Positions 4,160 through 58,717 of a stretch of 64,000 bases of DNA are shown here, piece by piece. A program made the position numbers and the translations under genes. Source of the stretch: Spirochaetota bacterium (GTDB lineage: Bacteria > Spirochaetota > UBA12135 > COTS27 > CAXSBA01); NCBI GenBank assembly GCA_965224715.1, contig OZ245054.1, forward strand, positions 2,004,334-2,068,333, written 5' to 3'. Numbering within the stretch: position 1 is the stretch's first letter; each line of letters begins with the position of its first letter. The notes beneath the pieces were generated by a model. That model worked only from the letters and a program-made list of their open reading frames with translations. It was not told where the DNA came from and made no database searches.

Positions 4160-4161
4160 TC

Positions 4162-4668
4162 TTAACGTCTCTTTACCTTATACTGACCCTCAACATATGC
4201 GGTAATTATAAGCTTTGTTCCCTTAGAAATAAAACCAATCTCTGACAAACCATCTAGTGTTCTATTTAATGCACGAATTTTGCCCACTGGTCGAAGGTCT
4301 GTATGAGCAATTACCCCTCCTTCATTGAATTGAGCTATCCTCTCTGAAATAATCTCTTCTTGATTATCATGAGGAAAAGGTACCTTATATTCTTGAGCCA
4401 CCCATTTCCACAGTCTAAACCTGATAAGAACAAAGAGATAAGTAGCTCCTACAATCAGAAAAATGATCCCAAGAAAAATCCCAATATTCGTATTTTGACG
4501 ATAAGCATAAATCCAAAAAATAAACCAACCTATTAAAGACGCTATAGTGATCATCATTGTCGGAATCACCAAAATATCTATGGTGATCGCTAAAGTAGCC
4601 ATAACGATGAATCCCAGACCGATCCAGGTTAAAGGATCATTTACCTCACTTATCATTTTCTCCATCAT
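4162..4668 (-). CDS. NfeD-family membrane protein (short form, C-terminal OB-fold)
   Basis: 168 aa with N-terminal TM helices and a C-terminal NfeD-type beta domain (DLRPVGKIRALNRTLDGLSEIGFISKGTKLIITAYVEG). Its start overlaps the stop of the upstream gene by 4 nt. Confidence 0.6.
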   Translation of the reverse strand: MMEKMISEVNDPLTWIGLGFIVMATLAITIDILVIPTMMITIASLIGWFIFWIYAYRQNTNIGIFLGIIFLIVGATYLFVLIRFRLWKWVAQEYKVPFPHDNQEEIISERIAQFNEGGVIAHTDLRPVGKIRALNRTLDGLSEIGFISKGTKLIITAYVEGQYKVKRR

Positions 4669-6794: not shown

Positions 6795-8771
6795 ATGAAA
6801 AAAGTTTTCATTGCCTATAGTTTTGATACTAAAAAAAAAAGATTCTTTCTACAGTTTGAGAAAAAATTTGAGGCAGTCTATTCTTTAAATAAAAAAAATC
6901 TTTCTGATCTACCCATATTTCCAGAAGTCAAAAACAATCCACTCTCCCAAATATTGTTTTTTTTTTCAATTGATTTTTATCTTGAAAATAAAGATATTAT
7001 CATTGAACTATATGATAAAAAAGGTAATTATGATTATAGTTTTTTTATTGTTATCGGAGCAAAAGATCATAAAAAAATCTCTAAAATCAATCTCAATACT
7101 CCATTTACCTTAGTTCCAGATCAACAATTCCATGATTTTTTTCAAAAGATTCTGTCCCAACCCACAGTTAATTTGAGAGATACCATTCGGATAAACAATA
7201 ACGGGTTAAATAATAAAATCTTAGAAGTTATTACCATTTTAGGTTCGGAAAGAAATATTGAGGTCTTGATGAACAAAATTTTAACTATTTGCATGGAAAT
7301 AGGTTTGGCCGATGCCGGCTCCTTAGCAATTTTAGGTTTTGACAAACAACTTCGAGAAACCGATAAAGACATTTTAACCTTCTACGTTTCCAAAAATAAT
7401 TCCAAAGAAATCCACTTCAATCGATTTTCTATGAAAATCGATTTAAACAGTTTGGCAGGATATTCGATTATCAAAAAAAGAATCCTCAATATTTCAGATG
7501 CCTATAAGATTTCCCCCAAAAAAAAATACCAATTCAACAATACTTTTGATAAAAAAACCGGCTTCAGAACTAAATCAGTTTTGGTCATTCCTTTATTGGA
7601 CTCCCATAATAACGTTTTAGGAGTAATCCAACTTCTTAATAAGAAAAAAGGAGGATATCAAAAAATTATCGATTATAATAACTTTTTACCTTCGGAAATT
7701 TCAGATTTCAGTCTTACTCAACAACAAACAATTATGAATATCGCTAACATAGCATCTATACTTTTGAAAAATCAACTCCTTTACAATCAAGTCAATAGTC
7801 TATTAGAGGATTTTGTCAAAGCTTCGGTATATGCTGTAGAACAAAGAGATCCCACTACTTCTGGACACTCTGAAAGGGTGGCTACTTATTGTGTTGAACT
7901 AGCTAAAGTTACAACTGCATCCAAAGGGATTTTAGAGAACTACCACTTTGACTCTCAACAGATCCAAGAAATCCGCTATGCTGCTTTACTTCATGACTTT
8001 GGGAAGATTGCTGTTCGAGAAAAAACCTTAGTTAAAGCTAAAAAACTAGAAAGCTATGAATTAGAAAATATTTTTAAGAAAATTCGAATTTATCTTCTTA
8101 ATTTTCAACTAGCCGCAGAACAGCGAAAGATTGATCTTCATAACAATGGTAAGCTTAATTCTGATGTTATCGCAAATAAGATAGAACAAATTGATAAACA
8201 AATTAAAAAAGAAATTCAAAAGATGGATCGCTTCCAACGAATAATTCTTGAAAGTAACAACCCTCAAATCATAGAAAAAGGTATCTCCACGACTCTTAAA
8301 AAAATTCAAAAAATAAAATTCTTTGATAACGGACAGGAGCAGTACATTTTGACAAATGATGAATTTAAATTTCTTAACATAAAAAGAGGATCCCTCTCAC
8401 AAGAAGAGAGACTTGAGATTGAAAGTCATGTAACTCAAAGTTTTTATTTCCTTCAGAAGATCAATTGGATTACCGGATTTAAGAATATCCCAGAAATTGC
8501 CTATGGTCATCATGAAAAGTTAGATGGTCATGGTTATCCTCGTAAACTAAAATCCTATCAAATACTTCCTCAGACAAAAATTATGACAGTATGTGATATT
8601 TACGATGCTCTCACCGCCTCCGATCGTCCTTATAAGAAATCACTCACACCTCAGCAATCTATTAAAATTCTCTACGATGAGGTTGATCAAAATAAGATTG
8701 ATGGCAATCTTGTTGATATTTTCGTTAAAAAGAAGGTATTTCGAGTTAAACCTTCCTACCTTCCTATTTAG
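6795..8771 (+). CDS. GAF domain-containing HD-GYP c-di-GMP phosphodiesterase
   Basis: 658 aa. The central region is GAF-like. The C-terminal HD-GYP domain shows SGHSERVA, LLHDFGK and HHEKLDGHGYP motifs. Confidence 0.85.
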   Translation: MKKVFIAYSFDTKKKRFFLQFEKKFEAVYSLNKKNLSDLPIFPEVKNNPLSQILFFFSIDFYLENKDIIIELYDKKGNYDYSFFIVIGAKDHKKISKINLNTPFTLVPDQQFHDFFQKILSQPTVNLRDTIRINNNGLNNKILEVITILGSERNIEVLMNKILTICMEIGLADAGSLAILGFDKQLRETDKDILTFYVSKNNSKEIHFNRFSMKIDLNSLAGYSIIKKRILNISDAYKISPKKKYQFNNTFDKKTGFRTKSVLVIPLLDSHNNVLGVIQLLNKKKGGYQKIIDYNNFLPSEISDFSLTQQQTIMNIANIASILLKNQLLYNQVNSLLEDFVKASVYAVEQRDPTTSGHSERVATYCVELAKVTTASKGILENYHFDSQQIQEIRYAALLHDFGKIAVREKTLVKAKKLESYELENIFKKIRIYLLNFQLAAEQRKIDLHNNGKLNSDVIANKIEQIDKQIKKEIQKMDRFQRIILESNNPQIIEKGISTTLKKIQKIKFFDNGQEQYILTNDEFKFLNIKRGSLSQEERLEIESHVTQSFYFLQKINWITGFKNIPEIAYGHHEKLDGHGYPRKLKSYQILPQTKIMTVCDIYDALTASDRPYKKSLTPQQSIKILYDEVDQNKIDGNLVDIFVKKKVFRVKPSYLPI

Positions 8772-9149: not shown

Positions 9150-9584
9150 TTAGATATTTCTTTTCTCATATCCTTTCATACTGATTTTTTGTTTATTATG
9201 GCCATGGACATTACGTTTCTGTTGCCACCCTAAAAGACTACATCCGAAAAAAATAAGAGTAATCCCAAATCCTCGAGTTATCGTCATGTTCTCTGATTCA
9301 AAAAAATATGAAGCTAAGAGAGTAACCCAAATGAAACTGGTAGCCAAAATTGGGAAAAGAACGGAAAAGTCTCCTGATTTGAATGCTATAATCATAAAAC
9401 CAGTAGCCAGAATATAAAGAAAGATGCCCAAATAGAGCCAAGGTTGGAAAAAGATATCAATATATCCATTAGCCCGGTCTATTGCCAATTTCCATAACAA
9501 CTGCCCAGATCCCGCCATGAATGAAGATAGGAGAATCATTACTAAAGCTATATGACTTTGATGAGACTGTTTATCTAATTCCAT
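9150..9584 (-). CDS. EamA-like (DMT superfamily) half-size membrane protein
   Basis: 144 aa with 4-5 TM helices and an EamA-like pattern. Paired with 8790-9146. Confidence 0.5.
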   Translation of the reverse strand: MELDKQSHQSHIALVMILLSSFMAGSGQLLWKLAIDRANGYIDIFFQPWLYLGIFLYILATGFMIIAFKSGDFSVLFPILATSFIWVTLLASYFFESENMTITRGFGITLIFFGCSLLGWQQKRNVHGHNKQKISMKGYEKRNI

Positions 9585-9673
9585 ACTCTAATTTTAATAT
9601 AAAGTAAACAGTGGTATTGAACAACCTTTGATATTTATAATCTGTTAAACCTAAATATTGGGTTTTCCGTTTC

Positions 9674-11083
9674 TCAATAACGATAAGTATCAGATTTAAA
9701 AGGGCCTTTGACCGGCACTCCAATATACTTTGCCTGTTTTGGAGTTAGAGTTTCAAGCTTAGCTCCGAGTTTAGCCAAATGAAGCCGGGCAACTTCTTCA
9801 TCTAAATGCTTAGGGAGAATATAAACTTTCTTCTGATATTTTTTACTATAATTCCATAACTCAATCTGAGCTAAAGTTTGATTACAAAAAGAATTAGACA
9901 TTACGAAAGAGGGATGACCAGTAGCACAACCAAGGTTGACCAATCGGCCCTCTGCCAAAATGATTATATCCTTGTTTTTGATAGTATATTTATCCACTTG
10001 GGGTTTAATATTAACCTTTGACTTACCATAATTTTTTTCTAACCAAGGCATGTCAATTTCATTATCAAAATGCCCGATATTACAAATTACAACTTTATCT
10101 TTAGCAGACTTGAAGTGCTGGGAAGTAATAATATCACGATTACCGGTAGCAGTTACAACGATGTCAGCACGAGGAACTGCCTCATCCATGGGCACCACCT
10201 CAAATCCTTCCATACAGGCCTGAAGAGCACAAATAGGGTCAATCTCACTCACCATCACCCTGACCCCAGCTTGTCTCAAAGATTCAGCTGAACCTTTACC
10301 CACATCTCCGAAACCGGCTACTACTGCTGTCTTACCAGCCAACATCAAGTCAGTAGCTCGACGAATCGCATCCACTAAAGATTCACGACAACCGTATTTA
10401 TTATCGAACTTAGACTTAGTGACCGAATCATTGACATTTATAGCAGGGATGGGGAGTTTTCCTTTTTTCATCCGTTCATAAAGACGAAGAACTCCGGTGG
10501 TAGTTTCCTCAGAAATTCCACGGATCCCAGAAACAAGTTGAGGATATTGATCTAGAACCATATTGGTGAGATCACCCCCATCATCTAGAATCATGTTAAG
10601 AGGTCGATCACTAGAGCCAAAAAATAGAGTTTGCTCAATACACCAGTCGAATTCCTGTTGGCTCATCTCCTTCCAAGCAAAAATCGGAATACCCTTCACC
10701 GCTAAGGCTGCGGCTGCATGGTCCTGGGTCGAAAAGATATTACAGGAAGACCATCTTATTTCTGCTCCTAATTCAATTAGGGTTTCAATTAATACCGCAG
10801 TCTGAATAGTCATATGAAGACAACCTGCAATCCGGGCTCCTTTAAGTGGTTTTTGAGTTTTAAATTTTTTACGAAGATGCATAAGACCAGGCATTTCTGC
10901 TTCAGCTAATTCAATTTCCTTCCTTCCCCAACCTGCTAAGGAAATATCCTTAACCTTATAATCCGGAAGAAAATAATTTTTATTTTTGAACTTTCTGACT
11001 TTTTTTTTGGAATTGAGTGCAGCTCCAATTTTTTCAGAAACTTTTTCTTCTTGTAATTTTTCTTTTAGTGAAATAAGTGTCAT
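9674..11083 (-). CDS. ahcY: Adenosylhomocysteinase
   Basis: 469 aa with full-length similarity to AhcY, including the NAD-binding GFGDVGKG motif, [11 protein letters not shown]-like [14 protein letters not shown] and a C-terminal [11 protein letters not shown]. Confidence 0.95.
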
Positions 11084-48007: not shown

Positions 48008-51000
48008 TCACGCTGCTCTATTCAACAACTGAATATAAATTTCTTCCGTCTTCTTTGCAATATCTTCCTGACTATATGCAGGGTCCGGAAGCCCTGTATT
48101 TTCGTCATATAGGAAATTATGTATTGCCGTCTTAATACTTGCCTTGGTGGCCTCTGTCGCTTTCCAGTCAGTCATTCGAGACATAATTTCTTTGAGTTTG
48201 GCTAATAGTTCTACAGCTACCTTTTTAATTTTCTTGATTTCTTCCTTGTTTAATGTTTGCTTGTTCAGCAAGTCAAAAATAAATAAACTATCCTGGTCAG
48301 GCAGCTCTTCACGGATATGCCGTTTCTCCTCTCTATCCAGGTCACCGTAAAACTTCAATAATTCCTCGAAAGTTTTCTCGATTGTCAATCTATCCTTTTC
48401 CTTGTTGTAATCCTTTATCAAATCTTGATAATGTTGCTGAAAATCAGTACGGAGTGGGTTTTGTTTCATCATCTCAGCTAGCTTAGAGTCGATGACTGAT
48501 TTCAGATTTTGAACAGTGGTGTTTTTTTTACTAGACTTTTTAAACTCCTGACGTAATCGTTCAAAATCTATCTTGGAAATATTATAAAGATGCCCATCAC
48601 CCTCATAACTATCTCTAATCTCAATGGCATCATCAATAATGCCGTGCAGTTCCTTAATAATCTCAGAAATGTCTGCATTGTTTCGGTCACTCATAAGACT
48701 TCTATAAATGATATTTAGCACGTCATAATCGTGGCGGTAATTATTTACCTGAGGTTTGATATTGATGCAGGCCTTGAACTTCTTGAATACCTCACGGCAC
48801 ATTATCTCAAAACGTTTGCGGGTCTGGTCGTTCTGATTAACGGCTTCCTTTGTGTTATCAATGGCCTTATTTCGCTCAAAGCCAGTGAACTTATTGATTT
48901 CGTCCAGTTCGACATTATTCTCTTTCAGGAATGCTTTGATAAATGCAATTCCCTCTGCTAAGTCTGCGATCAAGTATTCTTCAGCAGGTTTAATCGGATT
49001 AACCTCCGGACCACCGCCACCTTCATGTCCAGCAAAAGTAGCCAAGGCTTTTCTCAGATTTTTCAGGATACCGCAGTAATCCACAATAAGCCCATTGTTT
49101 TTGCCTTCATTAACACGGTTGGCTCTTGCTATGGCTTGCATCAGCGTATGAGCTTTTAGAGGTTTGTCTAGATAAAGGGTGGATAAACTTTTCACATCGA
49201 AACCTGTAAGCCACATAGCACAAACAAAAACAACTCTTAGGGGGTGTTCTGTATTCTTAAAGGCACTTTCCATATCTATCCGTTCACCGCCTGGTACATC
49301 AAATCCATTAAGTAGTCTTTCTCTATGTTTCTCAATACTCACATCCCACTTGGCGAATTTCTCTACCTCGCCTTGCTCTTCTGATACCACTACTGACATA
49401 ATCGTTTCTTCCATCCAGGCAATTTGCCGTTCTCGGAAAACCATTTCTTCTGGTTCAGTTATTTTTCGTTCAGTGGTTTTTAGATTTTCAATTTTTTTCT
49501 TCCATTCCTCTTGTACAACATCATACATCCGAACACAGGTGACTTTATCTATACACACAAACATTGCTTTGCCACTTTCCCAGGCTGTAGAATAATGCTC
49601 CACAAAGTCTTTGGCAATCTGCCGTAGACGTTTTTCAGCGGTGATGATATGGTAGTCTCTCCGCAATTCTTTTTCTAATTTCTCGGTAGTGTTAATATCC
49701 TCCACTTCCAGTTCAGCGAGTTTCTCTGCTATTCTCTCGTTAAGGCCATCGGTAGTAATGCGGAGTTTCTCTCCTCTGGCATCATAATAGAGAGGAACTG
49801 TTGCTCCATCTTCAACTGCTCGTTGAAAATCGTAAGTAGAGATATAATCCCCAAACACATCTTTGGTCACTTCATCCTCACCCTTGAATAGAGGTGTTCC
49901 TGTAAAGCCAATATAACTGGCGTTAGGAATAGCATTTCTCATATTAAGAGACAGCCGGCCATATTGAGTACGGTGGGCTTCGTCTGAGATAACGATAATA
50001 TCCTCTCTCTCAGAATACGGTTTGGACGGGTCAATATCTTTGTTAAATTTCTGAATGAGAGTAAATACAAAGGCTTTATGCTGAGACAGTAAGTCCGTTA
50101 AATGTTTTCCACTGGCTGCACGACACTCATCTTTATCATTATCCACAAGCTCACATCCGGCAAAGGTTTTATAAATCTGGGTATCCAGGTCGTCCCGGTC
50201 GGTCAACACCAAGAAGGTATAATTTCCGCCCAATTTGCGGTGAATCTTACGGGTAAAAAACACCATACTGTACGATTTCCCGCTACCCTGAGTATGCCAA
50301 AAGACTCCCAGTTTTCCTTTCCGTTCTTTACGCTCTTTTACGGCTTCAATGGCCTTATTTACCCCCAGGAACTGCTGGTTCTGAGCGACAATCTTGGTCA
50401 GGCTCCGACTGCTATTATCAAAAAGAATAAAGTTTTCAACTATATCAATCAGATTAGCTTTGGTACAAATACCGTTTAACAGGGTTTCCATATTCACAAC
50501 GCCCCTGTCTTCCTCTTTTAATCGTTTCCATTCTCTAAAAAATTTGAAAGGAGAAGAGAAGGGGCCTACCACCGCTTCAATGCCATTTCCCAGAATACAG
50601 AGAGCATTGTGATGAAAGAGTTGGGGACTCCGTTCTTTATAGGTAACTAGATTTTCTTCATAGGCTGCCTGTACGCTTTTGTGAACATTTTTAAGTTCCA
50701 TAAACACCAAGGGAATACCATTAACAAATCCGATAACATCAGCCCGACGGCGACCAAGGGGACCATGTATCCAAAATTCTCGCACACAAAGGAAATGATT
50801 GTTTTCCGGATTGGAATAATCGATAAGTTTTAGTTTCTGTTTTTCCTGTTCTCCTTTGTCGTTTTTGAATGTTACTTGGACACCGTCTTTAAGGAGTTCG
50901 TATTTTTCCCGGTTTATTTGGAGAAGTGATTGTGTTGTGGAATATTCAGTGATTGTACGGATAGCGTCATCATAGGCGGTTTCTGGAATGTTTGGATTAA

Positions 51001-51184
51001 ATTTCGCCAGTGCTTCTCGGAGATAGCGGGTTAATACAACTTCCAGATTATTTCCCCTACCAAGGAGGCTTTCTTTTCCAAAATCTTCATTGTTATAAGC
51101 CAATACATTTTCCCAGCCAAGTTGTTTCTCTAAGTAATCGGCTGTGGTGGTTTGAACTAAGTTATCTTCTGTGAATAGGTTCAT
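48008..51184 (-). CDS. hsdR: Type I restriction enzyme, R subunit
   Basis: 1058 aa. N-terminal nuclease region, SF2 helicase motifs (HTQGSGKS, VISDEAHRTQ, QAIARANR) and a C-terminal DUF3387-like tail (DSLFIFDLL). Confidence 0.95.
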   Translation of the reverse strand: MNLFTEDNLVQTTTADYLEKQLGWENVLAYNNEDFGKESLLGRGNNLEVVLTRYLREALAKFNPNIPETAYDDAIRTITEYSTTQSLLQINREKYELLKDGVQVTFKNDKGEQEKQKLKLIDYSNPENNHFLCVREFWIHGPLGRRRADVIGFVNGIPLVFMELKNVHKSVQAAYEENLVTYKERSPQLFHHNALCILGNGIEAVVGPFSSPFKFFREWKRLKEEDRGVVNMETLLNGICTKANLIDIVENFILFDNSSRSLTKIVAQNQQFLGVNKAIEAVKERKERKGKLGVFWHTQGSGKSYSMVFFTRKIHRKLGGNYTFLVLTDRDDLDTQIYKTFAGCELVDNDKDECRAASGKHLTDLLSQHKAFVFTLIQKFNKDIDPSKPYSEREDIIVISDEAHRTQYGRLSLNMRNAIPNASYIGFTGTPLFKGEDEVTKDVFGDYISTYDFQRAVEDGATVPLYYDARGEKLRITTDGLNERIAEKLAELEVEDINTTEKLEKELRRDYHIITAEKRLRQIAKDFVEHYSTAWESGKAMFVCIDKVTCVRMYDVVQEEWKKKIENLKTTERKITEPEEMVFRERQIAWMEETIMSVVVSEEQGEVEKFAKWDVSIEKHRERLLNGFDVPGGERIDMESAFKNTEHPLRVVFVCAMWLTGFDVKSLSTLYLDKPLKAHTLMQAIARANRVNEGKNNGLIVDYCGILKNLRKALATFAGHEGGGGPEVNPIKPAEEYLIADLAEGIAFIKAFLKENNVELDEINKFTGFERNKAIDNTKEAVNQNDQTRKRFEIMCREVFKKFKACINIKPQVNNYRHDYDVLNIIYRSLMSDRNNADISEIIKELHGIIDDAIEIRDSYEGDGHLYNISKIDFERLRQEFKKSSKKNTTVQNLKSVIDSKLAEMMKQNPLRTDFQQHYQDLIKDYNKEKDRLTIEKTFEELLKFYGDLDREEKRHIREELPDQDSLFIFDLLNKQTLNKEEIKKIKKVAVELLAKLKEIMSRMTDWKATEATKASIKTAIHNFLYDENTGLPDPAYSQEDIAKKTEEIYIQLLNRAA

Positions 51185-51353
51185 TTTTTTTCTTCGCTAA
51201 TCAACGAAAACTCTTTATTTCCATTATATCAACATTTTAAAAAGGATGTGTGTTTTTTGATAACCATTGCAATGAAATCACATATGAACATCGATAAACA
51301 TGGATGATGGGATGTCAATAAGCATAACTTTAGAGACAAAACCTTTTGCCCAT

Positions 51354-51366
51354 CGTATTATAACAT
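51354..51366 (-). promoter_or_regulatory. Candidate extended -10 promoter (TGTTATAAT) upstream of hsdR
   Basis: The minus strand reads ATGTTATAATACG. The 13-mer CGTATTATAACAT (plus strand) recurs exactly at 52230-52242 upstream of the HNH gene. No good -35 element is seen. Confidence 0.4.
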
Positions 51367-51504
51367 GGTAGAAGTAGAGCCGCAGAAAGCACAAAAAAAA
51401 TGCAGAGGAGAGGAATTGAAAGGATTAACCGCAATCGATACGCAAATGACGAATGGTTTATAAAAATAAGAGATTAAAGTTGTAATCGCAGAGAATGCAG
51501 AGTT

Positions 51505-52137
51505 CTATTCAGAACAAGATTTCTTTATTTTTTGAACAGCTTTTTTTTCTTCATTATCCATTTTTAAATCATATTTGTTTTTAATATTTATCCATAAATC
51601 AGCATATTGACAAATAAAGCTTTCTTGAGGCAACCAATGAGCTATATCTTTAGCGCCTTTGCTTCGATTAGCTTTCTTAAATACTGCCAGCAAATTTTCA
51701 TGATCGTTGGCAAATTCCTTTTTTTGTTTCTTAGTCCAATTCTTTCCACCAGATAAGTAAGCCTCTTTAAGAGGGACAACATGATCGATGTCAAGATCAC
51801 TGCTCTTGTAATAATATTTTTTTGTATAAAACCCCCACCATTTACCTGACAAAACTTTACACTTTTTCTTAGTTTTAAAAGTTACGGGAATTTCACTAGA
51901 AGCAATAAGTATTTCATGGCGTTCATTTTGACAATCTCCATCATCATCAATCCAATGTCTCCAGTTTTTGCGGTTGTATTTTTCATTAGCTTTTTTTTGA
52001 GGTGATACAATACTCTCATTATGATAATGATATGAGCCATCCATATAATGACCCCCATATTTATCAGTTCTTCCTGAATGAGAAAAGCTAAACCAACAAA
52101 TGGCGATCAATATAATGACTGTTTTTTTTAACTTCAA
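51505..52137 (-). CDS. Secreted YHYH-motif / DUF1524 (His-Me finger, HNH-like) nuclease
   Basis: Signal peptide (VIILIAICWFSFSHS), GGHY...YHYH motif, WRHWIDDDGDCQNERHEIL, and the DUF1524 catalytic block DIDHVVPLKEAYLSGG...FANDHENLLAV...ANRSKG. Confidence 0.8.
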   Translation of the reverse strand: MKLKKTVIILIAICWFSFSHSGRTDKYGGHYMDGSYHYHNESIVSPQKKANEKYNRKNWRHWIDDDGDCQNERHEILIASSEIPVTFKTKKKCKVLSGKWWGFYTKKYYYKSSDLDIDHVVPLKEAYLSGGKNWTKKQKKEFANDHENLLAVFKKANRSKGAKDIAHWLPQESFICQYADLWINIKNKYDLKMDNEEKKAVQKIKKSCSE

Positions 52138-52229
52138 TCTACTATAATAAAGTTATAACCACAAAACCATTACATGGTCGAGGTGCTAATAAGCACAACT
52201 TTGGAGACAAAAATTTTTACCATCCCTAT

Positions 52230-52242
52230 CGTATTATAACAT
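52230..52242 (-). promoter_or_regulatory. Candidate extended -10 promoter (TGTTATAAT) upstream of the HNH/DUF1524 gene
   Basis: Second exact copy of CGTATTATAACAT, embedded in a ~110-bp direct repeat shared with the hsdR upstream region. Confidence 0.4.
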
Positions 52243-52314
52243 AGCGGAAATGGAATCGCAGAGGGCACAGAGACCGCAAAGAAGAGAAACCGAAAAAATT
52301 ATCGCCTGATTATT

Positions 52315-52720: not shown

Positions 52721-53025
52721 AAAATCCTCCTTATATTCTACATAATAATGGTATCATACTATCTTATGAAAAGTCAAGTTTTTTAGTTTTCTTGTGCTGA
52801 ATTCAAGGGGCAAATGAACAGTAAATAAAAAGAGGAACATTCCTATACGATTGTTAATAAACCCAAATCAAAGGAAGTCCCTACGGATAGTGTATCACAA
52901 TCGTATTCTCATATTCCCTGACCCGTTTAATCCATAAATAAGATTAGTTTTCTTATCGGTTTCCAAAGAAGTAGATTCTTTGTAACTGGCTATGTTATTT
53001 ATTGTAATTTTTGTTATTATTTCGC

Positions 53026-54228
53026 TCATACCTGAACATCTCCATTCATAAGTTTAGGCAATAGCAAATCTCTTAATAATTTTAGGTTTTGGTTTTTCTT
53101 AACAAGTATTTTGGTCTGAGCCAATGTGATAGAAACAAATTCATTGAATAATAAAACAAACTTCTTCTTTGGAATTAGAATATCCATTCCACGAAAAGCT
53201 GTTTTATTTATTTCTTTAAAAGTGGTACCACCAGCATTTGAAATGATTTCATACTTTCTAAACATTAAATTGTATAAAAAATACCATCGAAAATGTTCAT
53301 CATTTGGTATCAATGATATAAATCCCTGATTTGTACAACACGGATTATCGAAAATCCCAAAAAATCCAATTGAAGCACGACTGGTCATAAGGATAGTATT
53401 CTTTGGTAACATTTTCGCGCTACTTTTTTGAAGCCCCAGAGGAGTTATTTTTCTATCTGAGCCAAGAAGTATGAGACTATTATTATTAGTTAAGTCTTTG
53501 GGTACAAACCACTCTATTACCCCATTATCCCAAAACTCTGACTTGGAAGTTGAAGGGGTGCCACCTCCAATACATTCACACACCTCCCCCAGCGTCCTCC
53601 TCTCCCATCCCTCGGGTATCCCGTCCACAATCTTTACCTTCTCGTGCCCGGGAAACTTGAACCGCACAAACCACTCCTTATACAAATGCCGTGCCGCCTG
53701 TTCCAACAGAGCAATACGGCGGTTGTTGTTTTCAATCAGGTCATCGTAGGCGGAGAGGATGTCGGCAATACGTTTTTGGGTGGGGAGGGGGGGGAGAGCA
53801 ATTTTAATATCGGCTATAGCCTCCTTTTGGGCACGTTGGCGGCCAGAAGCACCAACCATACTTTTTATCGCAGGTCTAGTAATTGTCTCACTTTTAGAAA
53901 GATAATATAAATAGTGATTATCTATCTTCTTTTCTTTTGGTCTAAAAACGATATACTCAGTTGACCCAAAAGCACCAGTTGTTTCCAACTTTGGTACAAA
54001 TGCAATTTTGCCGTGCTCTAAACAAGGAGTAATTCTGGCAAAAATTATGTCATTCTCGCAGAACCGTGCCCCACCACCTTTTAGTGTACGCTGGCCTTTG
54101 GGGTACACATTCTTTTTTTCAGGATTGACATCCTCCATAGGAATAAAATCATAGTTTTCCCCTTTTATTAAAGGTACTTTTGGATTTATTTGTACAATTT
54201 CATCAAATCGGTAAATTTTCATACTCAC
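53026..54228 (-). CDS. hsdS: Type I restriction enzyme, S (specificity) subunit
   Basis: 400 aa. Two target-recognition domains are separated by the conserved central helix (LPPLPTQKRIADILSAYDDLIENNNRRIALLEQAARHLYKEWF). A C-terminal conserved helix is also present (LLRDLLLPKLMNGDV). GTG (54228) or ATG (54222) start behind GGGAGGTGGTGGA. Confidence 0.9.
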   Translation of the reverse strand: MSMKIYRFDEIVQINPKVPLIKGENYDFIPMEDVNPEKKNVYPKGQRTLKGGGARFCENDIIFARITPCLEHGKIAFVPKLETTGAFGSTEYIVFRPKEKKIDNHYLYYLSKSETITRPAIKSMVGASGRQRAQKEAIADIKIALPPLPTQKRIADILSAYDDLIENNNRRIALLEQAARHLYKEWFVRFKFPGHEKVKIVDGIPEGWERRTLGEVCECIGGGTPSTSKSEFWDNGVIEWFVPKDLTNNNSLILLGSDRKITPLGLQKSSAKMLPKNTILMTSRASIGFFGIFDNPCCTNQGFISLIPNDEHFRWYFLYNLMFRKYEIISNAGGTTFKEINKTAFRGMDILIPKKKFVLLFNEFVSITLAQTKILVKKNQNLKLLRDLLLPKLMNGDVQV

Positions 54229-56236
54229 TCCACCACCTCCCAGTGTCCACCTTTCGCAATTCCTATCATTTCAATTTTTTCATGCTTTCTATTTTATAAC
54301 CGCAGAGGACCTGAGATCGCAGAAAAGTATAACTCCGCGCTCCTCCGTGCTCTCCGCGGTTTATTTTCTTCACTCCATCACCTCCCAGTATCCACCTTTC
54401 GCAATTCCAATCCACTTCAATTTTTCCATGCAGAGGACGCTGAGATCGCAGAGAAATGTAACTCCGCGTTCCTCCGTGCTCTCCGCGGTTTATTTTCTTC
54501 ACTCCATCACCTCCCAGTATCCGCTTTTCGCAATTCCTATCATTTCAATTTTGTAACCGCAGAGGACCTGAGATCGCAGAGAAGTATAGCTCCGCGTTAC
54601 TCTGTGCTCTCCGCGGTTTATTTTCTTCACTCCATCACCTCCCAGTATCCGCTTTTCGCAATTCCTATCATTTCAATTTTGTAACCGCAGAGGACCTGAG
54701 ATCGCAGAAAAGTATAACTCCGCGTTCCTCCGCGCTCTCCGCGGTTTATTTTCTTTCATTCCACCACCTCCCAGTGTCCACCTTTCGCAATTCCTATCAT
54801 TTCAATTTTTTCATGCTTTCTATTTTATAACCGCAGAGGACGCTGAGATCGCAGAGAAGTATAACTCCGCGTTCCTCCGTGCTCTCCGCGGTTTATTTTC
54901 TTTCATTCCACCACCTCCCAGTGTCCACCTTCGCAATTCCTATCATTTCAATTTTGTAACCGCAGAGGACGCTGAGATCGCAGAGAAGTATAACTCCGCG
55001 TTCCTCCGTGCTCTCCGCGGTTTATTTTCTTTCATTCCACCACCTCCCAGTGTCCACCTTCGCAATTCCTATCATTTCAATTTTTTCATGCTTTCTATTT
55101 TATAACCGCAGAGGACCTGAGATCGCAGAAAAGTATAACTCCGCGTTCCTCCGCGCTCTCCGCGGTTTATTTTCTTTCATTCCACCACCTCCCAGTGTCC
55201 ACCTTTCGCAATTCCTATCATTTCAATTTTTTCATGCTTTCTATTTTATAACCGCAGAGGACCTGAGATCGCAGAAAAGTATAACTCCGCGTTCCTCCGT
55301 GCTCTCCGCGGTTTATTTTCTTCACTCCATCACCTCCCAGTATCCACCTTCGCAATTCCAATCCACTTCAATCTTTCTATTTTATAACCGCAGAGGACGC
55401 TGAGATCGCAGAAAAATGTAACTCCGCGCTCCTCTGTGCTCTCCGCGGTTTATTTTCTTCACTCCAACACCTCCCAGTGTCCACCTTTCGCAATTCCAAT
55501 CCACTTCAATTTTTCCATGCTTTCTATTTTATAACCGCAGAGGACGCTGAGATCGCAGAAAAATGTAACTCCGCGTTCCTCCGTGCTCTCCGCGGTTTAT
55601 TTTCTTTCACTCCACCACCTCCCAGTATCCGCTTTTCGCAATTCCAATCCACTTCAATCTTTCTATTTTATAACCGCAGAGGACGCTGAGATCGCAGAAA
55701 AATGTAACTCCGCGTTCCTCCGTGCTCTCCGCGGTTTATTTTCTTTCATTCCACCACCTCCCAGTATCCGCTTTTCACAATTCCTATCATTTCAATTTTG
55801 TAACCGCAGAGGACGCTGAGATCGCAAAGAAATGTAACTCCGCGCTCCTCCGTGCTCTCCGCGGTTTATTTTCTTCACTCCATCACCTCCCAGTGTCCGC
55901 TTTTCGCAATTCCTATCATTTCAATTTTGTAACCGCAGAGGACGCTGAGATCGCAAAGAAATGTAACTCCGCGCTCCTCCGTGCTCTCCGCGGTTTATTT
56001 TCTTCACTCCAACACCTCCCAGTATCCGCCTTTCGCAATTCCAATCCACTTCAATTTTGTAACCGCAGAGGACGCTGAGATCGCAGAGAAGTATAACTCC
56101 GCGCTCCTCTGTGCTCTCCGCGGTTTATTTTCTTCACTCCAACACCTCCCAGTATCCGCCTTTCGCAATTCCTATCATTTCAATTTTTCCATGCTTTCTA
56201 TTTTATAACCGCAGAGGACGCTGAGATTGCAGAGGA
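54225..56236. repeat. Tandem array of 14 full + 1 partial hairpin-containing units (period 128-147 bp) between the GxxExxY gene and hsdS
   Basis: The core AACCGCAGAGGAC(G)CTGAGATCGCAGA.AA.T.TAACTCCGCG.TCCTC.G.GCTCTCCGCGGTT recurs 14 times. One copy (~54431) lacks the leading AACCG. The partial 15th unit starts at 56207. Core starts are 54298, ~54431, 54555, 54683, 54829, 54958, 55104, 55250, 55386, 55533, 55672, 55802, 55931 and 56061. Cores alternate with mosaic linker variants. Confidence 0.95.
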
Positions 56237-56617
56237 TTCTTGTAAGTTATTCACCAATCTTTTTATTCCATTTTTCACTTTGAGCGTATTGAAATTAATA
56301 ATTAGGCCAACTTGTAGATTTTTAATTTTAAGATAATTAAGTAATTGTGCTTCATCAATGTTCGTTAATTCTTTTACAGCTTTACACTCAATGATTACTT
56401 TATTCTCTACGAAAAAATCACAACGAAAACCTACATCCAGTTTCAATCCCTTGTATTTAATAGGCATTTCATATTCTTTTAAATAGGAAAGCCCTGCTAT
56501 ATCCATCTCTTTCGCCAATGCAGATTGGTAAACACTTTCAAGGAATCCACAACCAAGCTCCTTGTGGACTTCAATTGCACAGCTAATAATTTTTTCAGTT
56601 ATCTTGTTTATTTCCAT
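56198..56617 (-). CDS. GxxExxY protein (PD-(D/E)XK-like, PDDEXK_3 family)
   Basis: 139 aa with the eponymous motif in GCGFLESVYQSAL and a nuclease-like core (DFFVENKVIIECKAV). The last 11 codons (SAISASSAVIK) are encoded by repeat-array sequence. Confidence 0.85.
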   Translation of the reverse strand: MEINKITEKIISCAIEVHKELGCGFLESVYQSALAKEMDIAGLSYLKEYEMPIKYKGLKLDVGFRCDFFVENKVIIECKAVKELTNIDEAQLLNYLKIKNLQVGLIINFNTLKVKNGIKRLVNNLQESSAISASSAVIK

Positions 56618-56618
56618 A

Positions 56619-56644
56619 ACTCCCTCTGCGTTTCTCTGTGGTTA
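56619..56644 (-). repeat. Left inverted-repeat arm of the GxxExxY cassette (also supplies its SD)
   Basis: The minus strand reads TAACCACAGAGAAACGCAGAGGGAGTTATG. It starts at the hsdM stop codon. It is complementary in pattern to CCTCTGCAATCTCAGCGTCCTCTGCGGTT at the gene's 3' end (56207-56236). Confidence 0.6.
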
Positions 56645-58717
56645 TATCCCCAGTTCCTCAAAGTTTTTCTGGATTTTTTCGGCCAACACGACCGCTTCCT
56701 CATTAAGACCTTTTAACTCAGTATGAATTTCTCGCATTGTTTCTTCAAAATCAAAATCCTCGTCTTCCTCCTCAGGGGCAACGCCAACATACCTTCCAGG
56801 AGTAAGGCTCCAGTCATTTTTTTCGATTTCCGCTTTATCGACCAGTTTGCACAGACCTTCGACGTCTTGGTACTCTCCCTCCGGGAACCGCTCCAGCAGC
56901 CAGTTAGACTGCTTATGGAAATAGCGAACCTGTTTCAGGGTATTTATAAGCTCTTTCCGTTCCTCATCCAGGGCTTTCAGATTTTTAAGGATTTCTTTAC
57001 CATCCCAGGTATCGCTCTGTCTGGCTTTATATTCACCTTCTGCTACTTCAAGGTTTTTCTGAATGAGTTTAAACAGTAGGTCTATAGACTTTACTATGTC
57101 ACGGCTTTGTTCGGCAACAGGTTTCCACTCACCAGACAATCCCGATAGTTTTTTAATCTCCGCACCACCAGACTTCTTTTTACTTAACAAGGTAACCTGT
57201 TCGTTAAACGCACTTACATCACCGGACACAGTATCCAGAGCCTCGTTTAGTTCCTTGAACTGTTCCTGATGTTCCTCGGATAGTGACTGTTTACCAAGAA
57301 AGGCTTTAAGCGGTTTTACGATTTTATCCAGGGAATCCCGGAATTGTCCCAGAGGAGTAGCACAATCCAGTGCTGCCCCACAGGTTTTTGCAAGATAATC
57401 ACTTACCAGCGAAGCAAAGCGGTCATTCTCTTTTCGATATAGCCAGACTATGGAAGTAAGGCTTTTCTGCTGCTCAGGAGAAAAATCATAAATTACCCGT
57501 GTTACTTTGCGGTGAACATTACGGGCATCTATCATTAAGACCTTGTCGTTATTCGTCTTGGCTTTATCCAGAAACCATAATTCACAGGGAACGGTTCGTG
57601 TGTAAAAGAACCCTCCCCGAATAGCCATCATACAGTCAACGTGTCCAGTCTCAACCAGTTTACGGCGGACTTCTGCTTCCTTGTTTCCGGCACTGGAAGC
57701 CTGACTGGACATGACAAATCCACTTCGTCCCTTTTCACTTAGGTAGGAATAAAAATATGAAATCCACAGGTAGTTTCCATTGGATACTTTTTCTTTTTTG
57801 TTTACTCCAGGGAGACCAAACGGAAGCCTTGGGTCATTCTTTATTTTGTCCGCGTCCACCTCATCCACGTTAAAGGGAGGATTAGCCATTACATAATTTG
57901 CCTTCCCAATAAGTTCGTGGGGGTCTTCATAATACGATATTGCTTTTTGTATATTCCCCTCTAGTCCGTGAACAGCCAGGTTCATTTTGGCTAGACGAAT
58001 GGTAGTTGGGTTTTTCTCCATTCCATAAAATACGACCCTCTCGGAGGGACTTTGGTTATGGGCTTCAATAAAGTGAGCTGATTGAACAAACATCCCACCG
58101 GAGCCACAGGCGGGGTCAAGTACCTTTCCGTTTTCTGGTTCAATGACATTGACAATCATCTGGACGATTGATTGTGGGGTAAAAAACTCTCCGCCGTCAT
58201 GGGCTTTCAGACCAGCAAAACCAGTCAGAAAATACTCATAAATTCTACCGAATACATCTCCGTCGGCAGATTCCAGCGCGGGGTCATTGAAGGTTCTAAG
58301 CAGGTTCCCCAGGACATCATTATCGAGTTCCTGGTATTCACTTTTGGGAAGAACACCTTTCAGACCATCATAGTCGGTCTCGATACTTTCCATAGCATCG
58401 ATAATGGCTTTAGCTCTATCTTGCTCTGATGGTAATGACACAAGGTATTCAAACTGTGCCTTTTCCTGTAAGTACAAAGCACTCTTTCTAGCAAAGTCTT
58501 CTTTGGTTAATTCACGTGTTTTTCCACCACGGCTGGGGAGCGTTTTTACGATTTCTTCTTTAATCATCAAAAAACGGCTATAGGCATGACGTAGGAAAAT
58601 AAGCCCCATTACAGGCAGGAAGTATTCATTAGCGGCAAAGTTTGAGTTTGCCCGTAGGTTATCCGCACTCGACCAGAGGCGTTTTTCAATTTGTTCGATA
58701 TTTTCGAGTTGGCTCAT
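56642..58717 (-). CDS. hsdM: Type I restriction enzyme, M subunit (N6-adenine DNA methyltransferase)
   Basis: 691 aa. HsdM N-terminal domain, SAM-binding DPACGSGGM, catalytic NPPF (VMANPPFNV) and a long coiled-coil C-terminal extension ending in SLTPGRYVG. Confidence 0.95.
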   Translation of the reverse strand: MSQLENIEQIEKRLWSSADNLRANSNFAANEYFLPVMGLIFLRHAYSRFLMIKEEIVKTLPSRGGKTRELTKEDFARKSALYLQEKAQFEYLVSLPSEQDRAKAIIDAMESIETDYDGLKGVLPKSEYQELDNDVLGNLLRTFNDPALESADGDVFGRIYEYFLTGFAGLKAHDGGEFFTPQSIVQMIVNVIEPENGKVLDPACGSGGMFVQSAHFIEAHNQSPSERVVFYGMEKNPTTIRLAKMNLAVHGLEGNIQKAISYYEDPHELIGKANYVMANPPFNVDEVDADKIKNDPRLPFGLPGVNKKEKVSNGNYLWISYFYSYLSEKGRSGFVMSSQASSAGNKEAEVRRKLVETGHVDCMMAIRGGFFYTRTVPCELWFLDKAKTNNDKVLMIDARNVHRKVTRVIYDFSPEQQKSLTSIVWLYRKENDRFASLVSDYLAKTCGAALDCATPLGQFRDSLDKIVKPLKAFLGKQSLSEEHQEQFKELNEALDTVSGDVSAFNEQVTLLSKKKSGGAEIKKLSGLSGEWKPVAEQSRDIVKSIDLLFKLIQKNLEVAEGEYKARQSDTWDGKEILKNLKALDEERKELINTLKQVRYFHKQSNWLLERFPEGEYQDVEGLCKLVDKAEIEKNDWSLTPGRYVGVAPEEEDEDFDFEETMREIHTELKGLNEEAVVLAEKIQKNFEELGI

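Follow-up and report, generated by a model that had tools for sequence, protein, structure and literature searches.

Organization of the R-M operon and the tandem array

The window, that is, the whole 64-kb stretch of DNA that was analyzed, contained a complete type I restriction-modification (R-M) operon in which hsdM, hsdS, and hsdR were all present and intact. A GxxExxY gene enclosed by inverted arms and an array of tandem units were located between hsdM and hsdS. The genes flanking the array were all on the minus strand. The features of the operon were as follows.

56642..58717, minus strand: hsdM, type I R-M methylase of 691 aa (PF02384, E 1e-78; HsdM_N; TIGR00497)
56618..56646, minus strand: 5' arm of the GxxExxY cassette (TATAACCACAGAGAAACGCAGAGGGAGTT), which base-pairs with the 3' arm when 56150-56680 is folded (MFE)
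56198..56617, minus strand: GxxExxY/PDDEXK_3 gene of 139 aa (TIGR04256, E 1e-42; PF13366, E 2e-41)
56206..56236, minus strand: 3' arm of the GxxExxY cassette (CCTCTGCAATCTCAGCGTCCTCTGCGGTTA)
56127..56205, minus strand: first linker, composed of the 3'-terminal remnant of a deleted AlbA_2/HATPase_c_4 gene and a duplicate of the hsdS ribosome-binding site (RBS) and first codons
54223..56126, minus strand: 14 tandem units, each made of an ORF-less hairpin (66-67 nt; 62 nt in unit 13) and a linker of 62-80 nt
54297..54362, minus strand: hairpin of unit 14, the last of the array
54223..54296, minus strand: last linker, the working hsdS leader, in which GGGAGGTGGTGGAGTGAGT precedes the ATG at 54222
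53026..54228, minus strand: hsdS, 398-400 aa, intact, with two target-recognition domains (PF01420, E 9e-50, two stretches)
52257..52281, minus strand: solo arm-like stretch (CTTTGCGGTCTCTGTGCCCTCTGCG), elsewhere in the same operon
48008..51184, minus strand: hsdR, 1058 aa, intact (TIGR00348, E 2e-148)

The hairpins of units 1-7 started at 56126, 55996, 55867, 55737, 55598, 55451, and 55314, and those of units 8-14 at 55168, 55023, 54894, 54747, 54619, 54491, and 54362 (minus strand). The stop codon TAA of hsdM (56642-56644) was the outermost TAA of the 5' arm of the cassette. A GTG at 54228 was a possible alternative start of hsdS. The solo arm and its flanks (52160-52300) formed a direct repeat of about 110 nt with 51290-51420.

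Counting by anchoring placed the array at 54223-56236, with 14 full units of 128-147 bp and a half unit. Tandem Repeats Finder reported a single array at 54286-56187 (period 129-147, 14.1 copies, score 1773). Both results agreed with a preliminary description of the locus, which had placed 14 full units and one truncated unit between the GxxExxY gene and hsdS. The truncated unit was the 3' arm (56206-56236) that closes the GxxExxY ORF. The GC content was 56% in the hairpin cores (66-67 nt), 38.5% in the linkers (62-80 nt), and 36.5% in the whole window, so the GC-rich core and AT-richer linker described earlier were both found. The core was not an anonymous satellite, however: each unit carried the same two inverted arms as the neighboring GxxExxY gene, with the gene missing, and folded on the sense strand at a mean of -32.3 kcal/mol. 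Every alternative linker module listed earlier was likewise recovered, but these modules represent decayed versions of the final ~85 nt of a deleted AlbA_2/HATPase_c_4 gene, together with the hsdS start.

The most similar units were neighbors, with 2-5 differences, and certain distant pairs were also similar; divergence between units reached about 12%. In the four-gamete test, 104 of the 153 informative site pairs showed all four combinations, and the Hudson-Kaplan Rm was at least 10. The units were thus strongly mosaic, as the preliminary description had expected of unequal crossover or gene conversion.

ORFs on the sense strand of the array were of 2-30 codons only, in line with the earlier statement that a long reading frame is absent. 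A conserved peptide encoded by the units was ruled out, because the ORFs had 0, 2, or 26-30 codons and were inconsistent. A CRISPR array, already rejected in the preliminary description, was also excluded: the whole 128-147 bp unit repeats, all linkers are mutually homologous, and unique spacers are absent. The only CRISPR-DR matches (Rfam, E 2.8-4.2) fell within the GxxExxY ORF, and the neighbors were R-M and housekeeping genes. A tRNA/tmRNA scan found none, and there was no rRNA in the window. The hairpin was unmatched in Rfam at the gathering threshold (window and 18 hairpin-bearing loci) and at E up to 10 (array). In a metagenome scan with the array-specific junction GAAAATAAACCGCGGAGAGC, the array was not found a second time, the single match being an unrelated GC-rich contig. 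Look-ups of the exact hsdS, hsdM, and GxxExxY proteins, and of a RuvB with 100% identity, gave no record.

The GxxExxY cassette

The GxxExxY protein scored 145 bits against TIGR04256 (curated cut-off 35), which made it a member of the family. Its D67, E77, and K79 motif was intact. Among 40 homologues, D67 and K79 were invariant and E77 was nearly so (at least 90%). The predicted model had a pLDDT of 95. A PDB sequence search gave no match, and a PDB fold search with the model gave generic PD-(D/E)XK matches only, the best being Cas4 SSO0001 (E 7e-3).

The MFE fold of 56150-56680 placed the GxxExxY ORF in the loop and 56618-56646 and 56206-56236 in the stem. The 5' arm held the Shine-Dalgarno sequence of the gene, and the final ~15 codons (QESSAISASSAVIK) were read from the 3' arm. 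The last 21 nt of the 3' arm (TCTCAGCGTCCTCTGCGGTTA) were identical to the corresponding arm part in L018, a related operon, and in the Bacteroidota locus L020, while the proteins of the three loci were 49% identical. Comparison with the arms of L018, L080, and L085 showed that the resident 5' arm has two nonamers, the first of the ancestral three being lost. The second nonamer of the 5' arm in the array units carried the lineage-specific GCAC, as in the arms of L080, L085, and the window.

Composition of the linkers and related operons

All linkers aligned to the last ~85 nt of a 461-aa gene in L018, whose domains were SLFN AlbA_2, HATPase_c_4, and wHTH, and to the start of hsdS. The first linker matched the end of the L018 gene (...KMKKEGKLKRIGGAKGGHWEVVE, stop), and in the junction alignment homology of the unit ends with hsdS continued through GAAAAT..ACCG and stopped after it. 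Judged by these alignments, the linker is evidently what survives of the 3' end of an AlbA_2/HATPase_c_4 gene, joined to the hsdS RBS and first codons.

In four related operons, an arm-enclosed GxxExxY gene was located immediately after the hsdM stop codon. The premise that hsdM and hsdS are normally adjacent did not hold in these relatives, since the GxxExxY cassette, and in two of them the 461-aa gene as well, intervened. L018 and L080 had the order hsdM, arm-GxxExxY-arm, and AlbA_2 gene, and the array was absent. L085 came from a close relative (RuvB 98% identical, flanks of 87-92% nt identity). It had the same deletion junction as the window, one linker, and no empty hairpins; its GxxExxY gene had lost residues 38-102 and kept both arms.

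Identical copy number and sequence in all related strains, which the preliminary description had taken, together with uninterrupted co-transcription and unaltered hsdS translation, as the mark of an inert satellite, was not what was found: copy number varied, with 0 extra units in L085 and 14 in the window, although L085 is a short-read assembly that might collapse or skip a tandem array, so that this contrast is not proven. The GxxExxY protein of L079, which lies in a different genomic context outside any R-M operon, was 85% identical. The independent arrays at this locus (3.6 kb) contained arms as well as cassettes with internal deletions, and repeated at periods of 43, 119, and 142 nt. Since L079 is an unrelated contig with its own arrays of cassette debris, amplification recurs.

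Proposed origin of the array

With a probability of roughly 0.7, the array is an in-place tandem amplification of the ORF-less GxxExxY palindromic cassette together with the 62-80 bp that formerly lay between the cassette and hsdS. It is best read as a recent, lineage-specific, BIME-like amplification of an IVS-like "ORF-in-hairpin" cassette. The word "inserted" in the preliminary description does not fit, as nothing foreign was found and the array appears to have grown in place from resident sequence.

The proposed course has five steps. The starting point is the arm-enclosed GxxExxY gene directly after the hsdM stop, the arrangement observed in the four related operons. The AlbA_2/HATPase_c_4 gene was then lost in the common ancestor of the window and L085, fusing its last ~85 nt to the 3' arm, as the shared deletion junction shows. 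Judging from the new junction, GAAAAT|AAACCGCGG, a tandem duplication from the 5' arm to about codon 4 of hsdS may have followed through microhomology of a few bases; the microhomology at this junction is only 2-4 bases. The ORF would next have been lost from the duplicate, leaving a 66-nt hairpin, with parallels in L085 and L079. Finally, unequal crossover and gene conversion would account for the 14 copies and for the shuffled variants seen in them; stalling of replication at the hairpins may have contributed, as may action of the GxxExxY nuclease on its own arms. Both the first duplication and the loss of the ORF are reconstructed events.

The 5' arm of the array has three nonamers and the resident 5' arm has two, so descent from the resident arm requires an extra nonamer loss. 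Such a loss is plausible, as the nonamers lost in the window and in L085 are not the same ones. A unit divergence of up to about 12% is high for an array of recent origin and would require rapid mutation or conversion. If the proposed course is right, a 2-kb satellite becomes a readable history of cassette, gene deletion, duplication, ORF loss, and amplification, with intermediates preserved in relatives.

Possible enzyme-driven amplification

An alternative that departs from in-place amplification in the amplification step only is that GxxExxY, with its minimal PD-(D/E)XK fold, recognizes and cuts its own arms, and that rejoining or rolling-type copying adds units, as proposed for TnpA_REP and BIMEs. 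The primary sequence of the arms is far more conserved than the ORF that they flank, which would imply a sequence-specific reader. The D/E/K positions of the catalytic site vary little or not at all among the 40 homologues, and both known arrays (window and L079) adjoin an intact GxxExxY gene, while L085, with a catalytically gutted gene, has no array. With n=2 arrays, however, the association could be due to chance, and the genes of L018 and L080 are intact yet without an array. The activity is putative, the function of GxxExxY proteins being listed as unknown (PMC3424549), and the fold matches are weak and generic (best E 7e-3). The 62-80 bp of flank in each unit is explained by ordinary unequal crossover, for which an enzyme is unneeded. 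Enzyme-driven amplification is therefore possible but doubtful.

Expression of hsdS and a possible regulatory role of the array

The last linker served as the hsdS leader, and GGGAGGTG was present in 15 copies, with inconsistent accompanying mini-ORFs. A sigma-70 scan found no sense-strand promoter for hsdS in the array or linker. No sense-strand terminators were predicted in the array; its 14 terminator-like sites were all antisense. The hairpins of the array were sense-biased, with 4-5 G-U pairs and -32.3 vs -23.4 kcal/mol. This bias could hint at selection on the RNA, but the units are all copies of one ancestor and 30 independent hairpins are unbiased. RNA-strand selection across the hairpin family was ruled out by the same 30 hairpins (14 vs 16 by energy; 85 vs 75 G-U pairs).

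Before reaching hsdS, transcription would have to traverse 2 kb that give a purine-rich RNA, in which stable stems and decoy copies of the hsdS RBS each occur 14 times. Being reached through the 2-kb array, hsdS would be uncoupled from the translation of hsdM and GxxExxY and exposed to processing by double-strand RNases. As there is no sense-strand terminator in the array, the R-M system is probably still functional, with hsdS no longer coupled to hsdM.

The preliminary description proposed that copy-number changes could alter hsdS expression and the stoichiometry of the R-M complex. In a selected regulatory device of this kind, the unit number would set the hsdS:hsdM output via RNase III processing, decoy RBSs, or transcript length and give a switchable or tunable supply of the specificity subunit. 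The array occupies precisely the gap between the hsdM and hsdS cistrons, its units all contain the hsdS RBS and a stem that is stable on the sense strand, no sense-strand terminator interrupts, and the unit number is unequal between relatives. The position is nevertheless accounted for by the existing site of the cassette in the four related operons, the linker is a decaying pseudogene scrap with mini-ORFs of 2, 26-30, or 0 codons, and L079 has a like array outside any R-M operon. A selected device is thus unlikely; most likely the array is DNA of a selfish or neutral kind and was not built as a regulator.

A phase-variable type I R-M system was rejected, as the operon has a single intact hsdS, no recombinase, and an intercistronic repeat of 128-147 bp. 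Known phase-variable type I systems use hsdS inversion shufflons or short repeats within the coding sequence; none is known to use 130-bp intergenic units.

Improbable alternatives: integron-like array and assembly artefact

An integron-like array of tiny non-coding cassettes ending in attC-type hairpins is highly improbable. The imperfect palindromes ending TAAC...GTTA recall the AAC/GTT triplets of attC R boxes, all hairpins have one orientation, and the arm-carrying taxa overlap the taxa with chromosomal integrons. The hairpin ends TAACC...GGTTA do contain AAC/GTT, and the RYYYAAC/GTTRRRY consensus is matched only partly. Against integron cassettes, the associated ORF lies inside the hairpin loop and not between hairpins, Rfam has no match to the hairpin even at E up to 10, and the annotated neighbors are R-M and housekeeping genes only. 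Between the hairpins, the sequence shows homology to neighboring genes of this very operon, which contradicts unrelated imports. No intI/attI was found among the ORFs of at least 130 aa in 46-64 kb; six ORFs of the R-M operon were also profile-scanned.

An over-expanded or mis-joined repeat is hardly credible: tandem repeats are error-prone in assemblies and certain unit differences are 1-nt homopolymer changes (AAA vs AA) that long-read errors could produce, but many differences are non-homopolymer, structured, and mosaic, the long flanking genes are intact (691, 398, and 1058 aa), the source contig is apparently 2.1 Mb, and the independent assembly of L079 has the same phenomenon.

Comparison with known systems

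The array resembled the BIME-2/REP elements of Enterobacteria and Pseudomonas with TnpA_REP (RAYT) (PMC3333891). In both, short imperfect palindromes with linkers are arranged head to tail in intergenic or intercistronic positions, linker variants are mosaic, and the protein gene itself is bounded by inverted palindromes, with ORF-less copies more numerous. Copy number at a locus is strain-variable in BIMEs; here it is 14 vs 0 extra units (the latter from the short-read L085), and the L079 arrays are independent. RAYT is a Y1 HUH transposase, whereas the gene flanked here encodes a PD-(D/E)XK GxxExxY protein of ~125 aa (TIGR04256/PF13366). REP sequences are 20-40 nt with a GTAG foot and species-specific, whereas the arms here are ~30 nt of three 9-mers, with a sequence common to many phyla. 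Within this region of the genome the element is also low-copy (one locus in 64 kb), and its array unit, unlike a BIME, carries 62-80 bp of ordinary flanking sequence.

The cassette was also similar to the ORF-containing 23S rRNA IVSs of Coxiella and Leptospira (PMC4990558), which have a small ORF in the loop, a ~28-bp stem of terminal inverted repeats holding the Shine-Dalgarno region, and variable numbers of short direct repeats just upstream of the start codon. Their ORF tends to decay and leave the stem in place, ORF-less versions exist, and they are regarded as selfish and horizontally spread. The IVSs differ in location (helix 25 or 45 of 23S rRNA, against hsdM/hsdS operon genes) and in cargo, which is the S23p/IVP four-helix-bundle protein instead of GxxExxY, although L083 does carry IVP. 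Excision from the transcript by RNase III, a feature of IVSs, is putative for the cassette. Tandem arrays of 23S IVSs are not known.

MITEs such as Neisseria Correia and enterobacterial ERIC elements share with the cassette their terminal inverted repeats, ORF-less copies, intergenic insertion in operons, co-transcription, and potential RNase III sites. MITEs are dispersed, whereas the copies here are tandem with arms of tandem nonamers. Aspects of Correia- and ERIC-type MITEs are covered in reviews (PMC2229807; PMC3184786). No consistent direct repeat indicating target-site duplication was found at the ends of the examined cassettes, and no cognate transposase was found; by analogy, GxxExxY is a candidate transposase-like factor. 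An intergenic minisatellite or VNTR has in common with the array the head-to-tail units (here 128-147 bp), the number variable between relatives, and unequal exchange, but the unit here is a defined palindromic cassette minus its gene plus relics of neighboring genes.

Distribution of the arms and hairpins

The arms were built of three 9-mers, nnCGCAGAG/CTCTGCGnn, with ends TAACC...GGTTA. The 21-nt arm sequence occurred exactly in 77 loci of many bacterial phyla and two archaeal groups, while ~2 were expected by chance. In the 64-kb window, the arms were found in this operon only, and the same was true of the 21 kb of L085; several MAGs of other phyla had the exact arm on 2-3 contigs, and no viral contig had it. 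Hairpins were detected by nonamer spacing, which replaced a strict partner-arm pattern that undercounted. An ORF was absent from 31 of the 41 arm pairs, and GxxExxY was the only recognizable cargo among the 41. The terminal inverted repeats of L020 were perfect over 21 nt, and near-perfect ones occurred elsewhere. The ORF-in-hairpin design was also seen in L018, L020, L043, L080, L081, and L083; in L083, as one example, an IVP-family gene had the same design between aconitase subunit genes.

No description of the arm or hairpin was found in Rfam or in the searchable literature on the arms, GxxExxY, PF13366/TIGR04256, PF05635/TIGR02436, and non-rRNA IVS-like elements. It is tentatively suggested that GxxExxY genes and nonamer-built arms may form an undescribed family of ORF-in-hairpin elements across bacterial phyla and archaea, which would settle between co-transcribed genes, usually decay to ORF-less hairpins, and sometimes form tandem arrays, with the PD-(D/E)XK protein as sequence-specific reader of the arms. 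If true, this would be a REP/RAYT-like or IVS-like system on a different enzyme, and the array in the window a rare snapshot of amplification.

Among the small proteins of environmental bacteria that lack an explanation, GxxExxY proteins are some of the commonest. Across phyla their arms match base for base, although protein identity falls below 50%, and ORF-less hairpins are more numerous than full cassettes. The role of GxxExxY and the spread of 23S IVS-like elements, both long-standing questions, are now directly testable with an arm defined to 30 nt. The hairpins also matter in practice for annotation, as gene callers run ORFs into them; examples are the tails ...SAISASSAVIK and ...TPRSQRTPRLT and, on the antisense strand, the ORF AEDAEIAEK.

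Structure of the array and its operon

Tandem Repeats Finder analysis revealed one large array at 54286-56187 (period 129-147, 14.1 copies, score 1773), and no comparable second array was found anywhere in the 64-kb window. Anchoring on a conserved motif resolved 14 complete units of 128-147 bp and a half unit at 56206-56236, which confirmed the array as observed in the preliminary description. The cores of the units were 66-67 nt with 56% GC versus linkers of 62-80 nt with 38.5% GC; the whole window had 36.5% GC. All genes of the array neighbourhood are on the minus strand, in the order hsdM, GxxExxY, array, hsdS, a remodelled stretch of about 1.8 kb with a GmrSD_C-like gene, and hsdR. All three R-M genes are intact.

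Features of the operon and of the GxxExxY cassette (the gene with its enclosing inverted arms)
58717-56642, minus: hsdM, intact
56646-56618, minus: cassette 5' arm TATAACCACAGAGAAACGCAGAGGGAGTT, overlapping the hsdM stop codon and holding the GxxExxY Shine-Dalgarno sequence
56617-56198, minus: GxxExxY / PDDEXK_3 gene, 139 aa (TIGR04256, E 1e-42)
56236-56206, minus: cassette 3' arm CCTCTGCAATCTCAGCGTCCTCTGCGGTTA, supplying the last 15 codons of the called GxxExxY ORF
54228 or 54222 to 53026, minus: hsdS, intact
51184-48008, minus: hsdR, intact

Rfam gave zero matches in the whole window at the gathering threshold and no relevant match in the array at E up to 10, and no tRNAs were found in the window. 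Membership tests rejected a CRISPR array, an integron cassette array and a phase-variable hsdS system for the array. It was probably formed by lineage-specific, in-place amplification of an empty GxxExxY cassette together with relics of neighbouring genes (probability about 0.72).

The array unit and the GxxExxY cassette

On the sense (minus) strand, each unit opens with a 66-67-nt imperfect hairpin, AAACCGCGGAGAGCACGGAGGAACGCGGAG-TTATACTT-CTCTGCGATCTCAGCGTCCTCTGCGGTTA, and the mean energy of the array hairpins was -32.3 kcal/mol. Each arm consists of three 9-mers, of the nnCGCnGAG type in the 5' arm and the CTCnGCGnn type in the 3' arm. The GxxExxY gene is enclosed within the same kind of hairpin: its arms are base-paired in the minimum-free-energy fold of the region, and the array loop GGAGTTATAC stands at the position of the cassette's GGGAGTTATGG. 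Because the GxxExxY arms form the same hairpin around the ORF, the array hairpin corresponds to a cassette from which the gene is missing.

The GxxExxY motif and the D67/E77/K79 triad were kept in an alignment of 40 sequences. The AlphaFold model of the protein was confident (pLDDT 95); its fold matches in the PDB were generic PD-(D/E)XK cores only (best Cas4 SSO0001, E 7e-3), and a PDB sequence search gave no match. The predicted fold fits a nuclease. The function of PDDEXK_3 is listed as unknown, and the family has undergone multiple horizontal transfers (PMC3424549).

Origin of the linker and of the first copy

A scan of the genome collection with the 3' arm found an orthologous operon (L018) on a Spirochaetaceae MAG chromosome, with nucleotide identities to the window of 79% for hsdM and 78% for hsdR and an amino-acid identity of 93% for GxxExxY. 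Next after the cassette in L018 comes a 461-aa gene (SLFN AlbA_2, HATPase_c_4 and wHTH) whose end overlaps the hsdS start; the related operon L080 (GxxExxY 80% identical) has the same arrangement. All array linkers align to the last ~85 nt of this 461-aa gene (ending in KMKKEGKLKRIGGAKGGHWEVVE and a stop) and the hsdS initiation region. Judged by this alignment, the array linker is a fossil of the AlbA_2/HATPase_c_4 gene end. The preliminary description had seen a mix of alternative linker modules; every one was found in the array, but they proved to be differently decayed versions of this coding relic, with AGTGGATTGG nearer the ancestral ACGGATTGG than AATGATAGG is.

A 105-kb contig of another sample (locus L085, SRR14371711) encodes a homologue 98% identical to the window RuvB, and the housekeeping flanks of this locus are 87-92% identical to the window. 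The order in L085 is hsdM, 5' arm, shortened GxxExxY, 3' arm GACTCTGCGATCTCAGCGTCCTCTGCGGTTA, one long linker and hsdS. In the shortened gene (1327-1569), residues 38-102 are deleted in frame and the catalytic D67/E77/K79 are gone, with both arms kept, so that it looks like an intermediate towards the ORF-less hairpin. The junction of the AlbA_2-gene deletion (GGTTATAAAATAGAAA...) is common to L085 and the window, and no ORF-less hairpin was found in the short-read assembly of the L085 locus; the deletion is therefore older than the split of the two lineages, and the amplification is confined to that of the window. The count of extra units was 0 in L085 versus 14 in the window, array collapse being possible in a short-read assembly.

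The linker-to-5'-arm junction of the window array reads GAAAATAAACCGCGG. The unit ends (…GGAATGAAAGAAAAT/AAACCGCGG) are alignable to the hsdS start (…GGAGTGAGTATGAAAAT/TTACCGATT) through ACCG and diverge beyond it, and the post-junction sequence ATAAACCGCGGAGAGC is that found after the hsdM stop codon in L018. A lineage-specific GCAC lies in the second nonamer of the array 5' arm and is also present in the L080, L085 and window arms. The simplest reading of the first copy would be that the whole segment, 5' arm through about hsdS codon 4, was duplicated in tandem via a few bases of microhomology, after which the duplicated copy would have shed its ORF. Partial ORF losses with both arms retained are directly seen in L085 and L079. 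The resident 5' arms, next to hsdM, have each lost one nonamer, a different one in the window and in L085, and the array copy keeps three.

Expansion and recurrence

The units differ from each other by 2-16 changes. The most alike are neighbours (7/8 differ by 2, 9/10 by 3, 2/3 and 11/12 by 5), and some far-apart units are also alike (13/5 and 14/7, 4 differences each). All four combinations were present at 104 of 153 informative site pairs, with a Hudson-Kaplan Rm of at least 10 within the ~147-bp unit. This mosaic pattern is what repeated unequal exchange or conversion leaves behind, as the preliminary description had proposed; the interpretation of that description was partly supported overall.

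Arrays were also found outside an R-M context, in the long-read metagenome contig L079, which encodes a GxxExxY 85% identical to that of the window. The 3.6-kb stretch of L079 at 2519-6134 is nearly all cassette debris. An array of 43-nt period repeats the 5' arm with the start codon, reaching 13.9 copies in one stretch, and arrays of 119- and 142-nt period consist of internally deleted cassettes, with units made of the 5' arm, the last ~30 nt of the ORF, the 3' arm and a ~20-nt spacer; higher-order repeats measure 316 and 412 nt. The element therefore has a tendency to form such arrays, the window array being one case, and this is not specific to R-M operons. Similarity of the L079 spacers (AAGGGGGATA(T)AAACC) to the hsdM 3' end and arm junction of R-M-linked cassettes hints that the L079 copy derived from an hsdM-linked cassette. 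L079 also carries further arms at 9169-9885 and a bAvd/IVP-family gene at 8326-8649.

Predicted effects on hsdS expression

The sense strand of the array showed no sigma-70-like promoter and no terminator-like site, so transcription probably still runs from hsdM into hsdS, passing 14 stable stems and 14 decoy copies of the hsdS RBS. The sense RNA is purine-rich and C-poor (15% C). The decoy RBS copies precede open ORFs of 26-30 codons in five cases, ME-stop ORFs in five and no ATG in four, an inconsistency that disfavours a conserved peptide encoded by the units. The array would probably deprive hsdS of translational coupling and open the transcript to RNase III. The 14 terminator-like sites (each a hairpin plus TTTATTTTCT) were all on the antisense (+) strand at 54297-56126, against 2.1 expected in shuffles; they are consecutive, one per unit, and face into the operon from the hsdS side. 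Their T-run appears to stem from the hsdS start region, and the sites are therefore probably accidental.

Distribution of the hairpin family

The species-representative genome collection contained 77 stretches with the exact sequence TCTCAG(N)GTCCTCTGCGGTTA, compared with ~2 expected for 20 fixed bases over 1.2e12 positions. These came from Acidobacteriota, Verrucomicrobiota, Planctomycetota, Cyanobacteria, Bacteroidota, Nitrospirota, Nitrospinota, Desulfobacterota and Chloroflexota, and also from Methanosarcinaceae and Thermoplasmata. A looser detector found 192 arms in the 549 kb of those stretches (<1 expected). Among 41 convergent arm pairs, 31 were ORF-less hairpins, and GxxExxY was the sole recognisable cargo. 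The window, L018 and a Bacteroidota locus (L020; protein 49% identical) agree at every one of the last 21 nt of the 3' arm, and in about 14 of the top 120 GxxExxY homologues the C-terminal tail is translated arm. Further same-orientation cassettes lie between co-transcribed housekeeping genes, for example between Peptidase_M20 and OTCase (L081) and upstream of aconitase (L083). L083 also has, at 1785-2350 between the aconitase large and small subunit genes, a 23S_rRNA_IVP-family gene with its own inverted arms of TTGAAAA/TTGGAGA repeats and a long terminal stem, the same ORF-in-hairpin design with other arms.

No strand bias was found across 30 independent empty hairpins. On this evidence the hairpin family acts like a symmetric palindrome, and the bias towards the sense strand in the array copies counts in effect as one observation. 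Three groups of loci from different MAGs (L013, L050, L059; L016, L031, L034; L006, L010, L014) share the arm and tens of flanking bases, and one such group covers Planctomycetota and Anaerolineales; the sharing points either to long-lived orthologous copies or to composite repeats of larger size.

BIME-2 clusters, in which tandem palindrome and linker units vary in number and the associated gene is flanked by the same palindromes (PMC3333891), are closest to the array in way of working; however, the enzyme of the window element is not a Y1 transposase. In the 23S rRNA IVS (PMC4990558), a decaying ORF lies in the loop of a 28-bp terminal stem that contains the SD, and the ATG is preceded by short, variable repeats. 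The GxxExxY cassette is of like build, but its site is not rRNA, and the window element is a member of neither system. The arms matched no Rfam family, and no description was found in the literature searched; the ORF-in-hairpin element, with arms identical to the base across phyla, is of more interest than the array itself.

Other features of the R-M operon

Directly after the hsdS stop (MSEIITKITINNIASYKESTSLETDKKTNLIYGLNGSG), an AAA-ATPase-like ORF (52920-53028, minus) is truncated after ~35 codons and followed downstream by a 21-nt inverted repeat (52834-52854 / 52897-52917); L085 retains just its first ~50 nt. A 210-aa ORF at 51505-52137 (minus), within the operon, has a YHYH motif and a GmrSD_C (DUF1524-type HNH) domain and may be an accessory nuclease. 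A direct repeat of ~110 nt (52160-52300 and 51290-51420, minus) lies with one copy ahead of this ORF and one ahead of hsdR. It comprises a CTCTGCG-rich 3'-arm-like stretch, CCATGTTATAATACGAT (like an extended -10 box) and TTTTGTCTCyAAAGTTrTGCTTATT, and possibly represents a derivative of the arm element that carries a promoter; a comparable arm with CCATGCTATAAT is present in L085 at 4760-4810. Between the GmrSD_C-like gene and hsdR, L085 has two genes, one for SocA_Panacea and one for a 157-aa protein (4705-5989), replaced in the window by 282 nt with arm-like remnants (51209-51491). From this comparison, the site is a second variable spot of the R-M operon.
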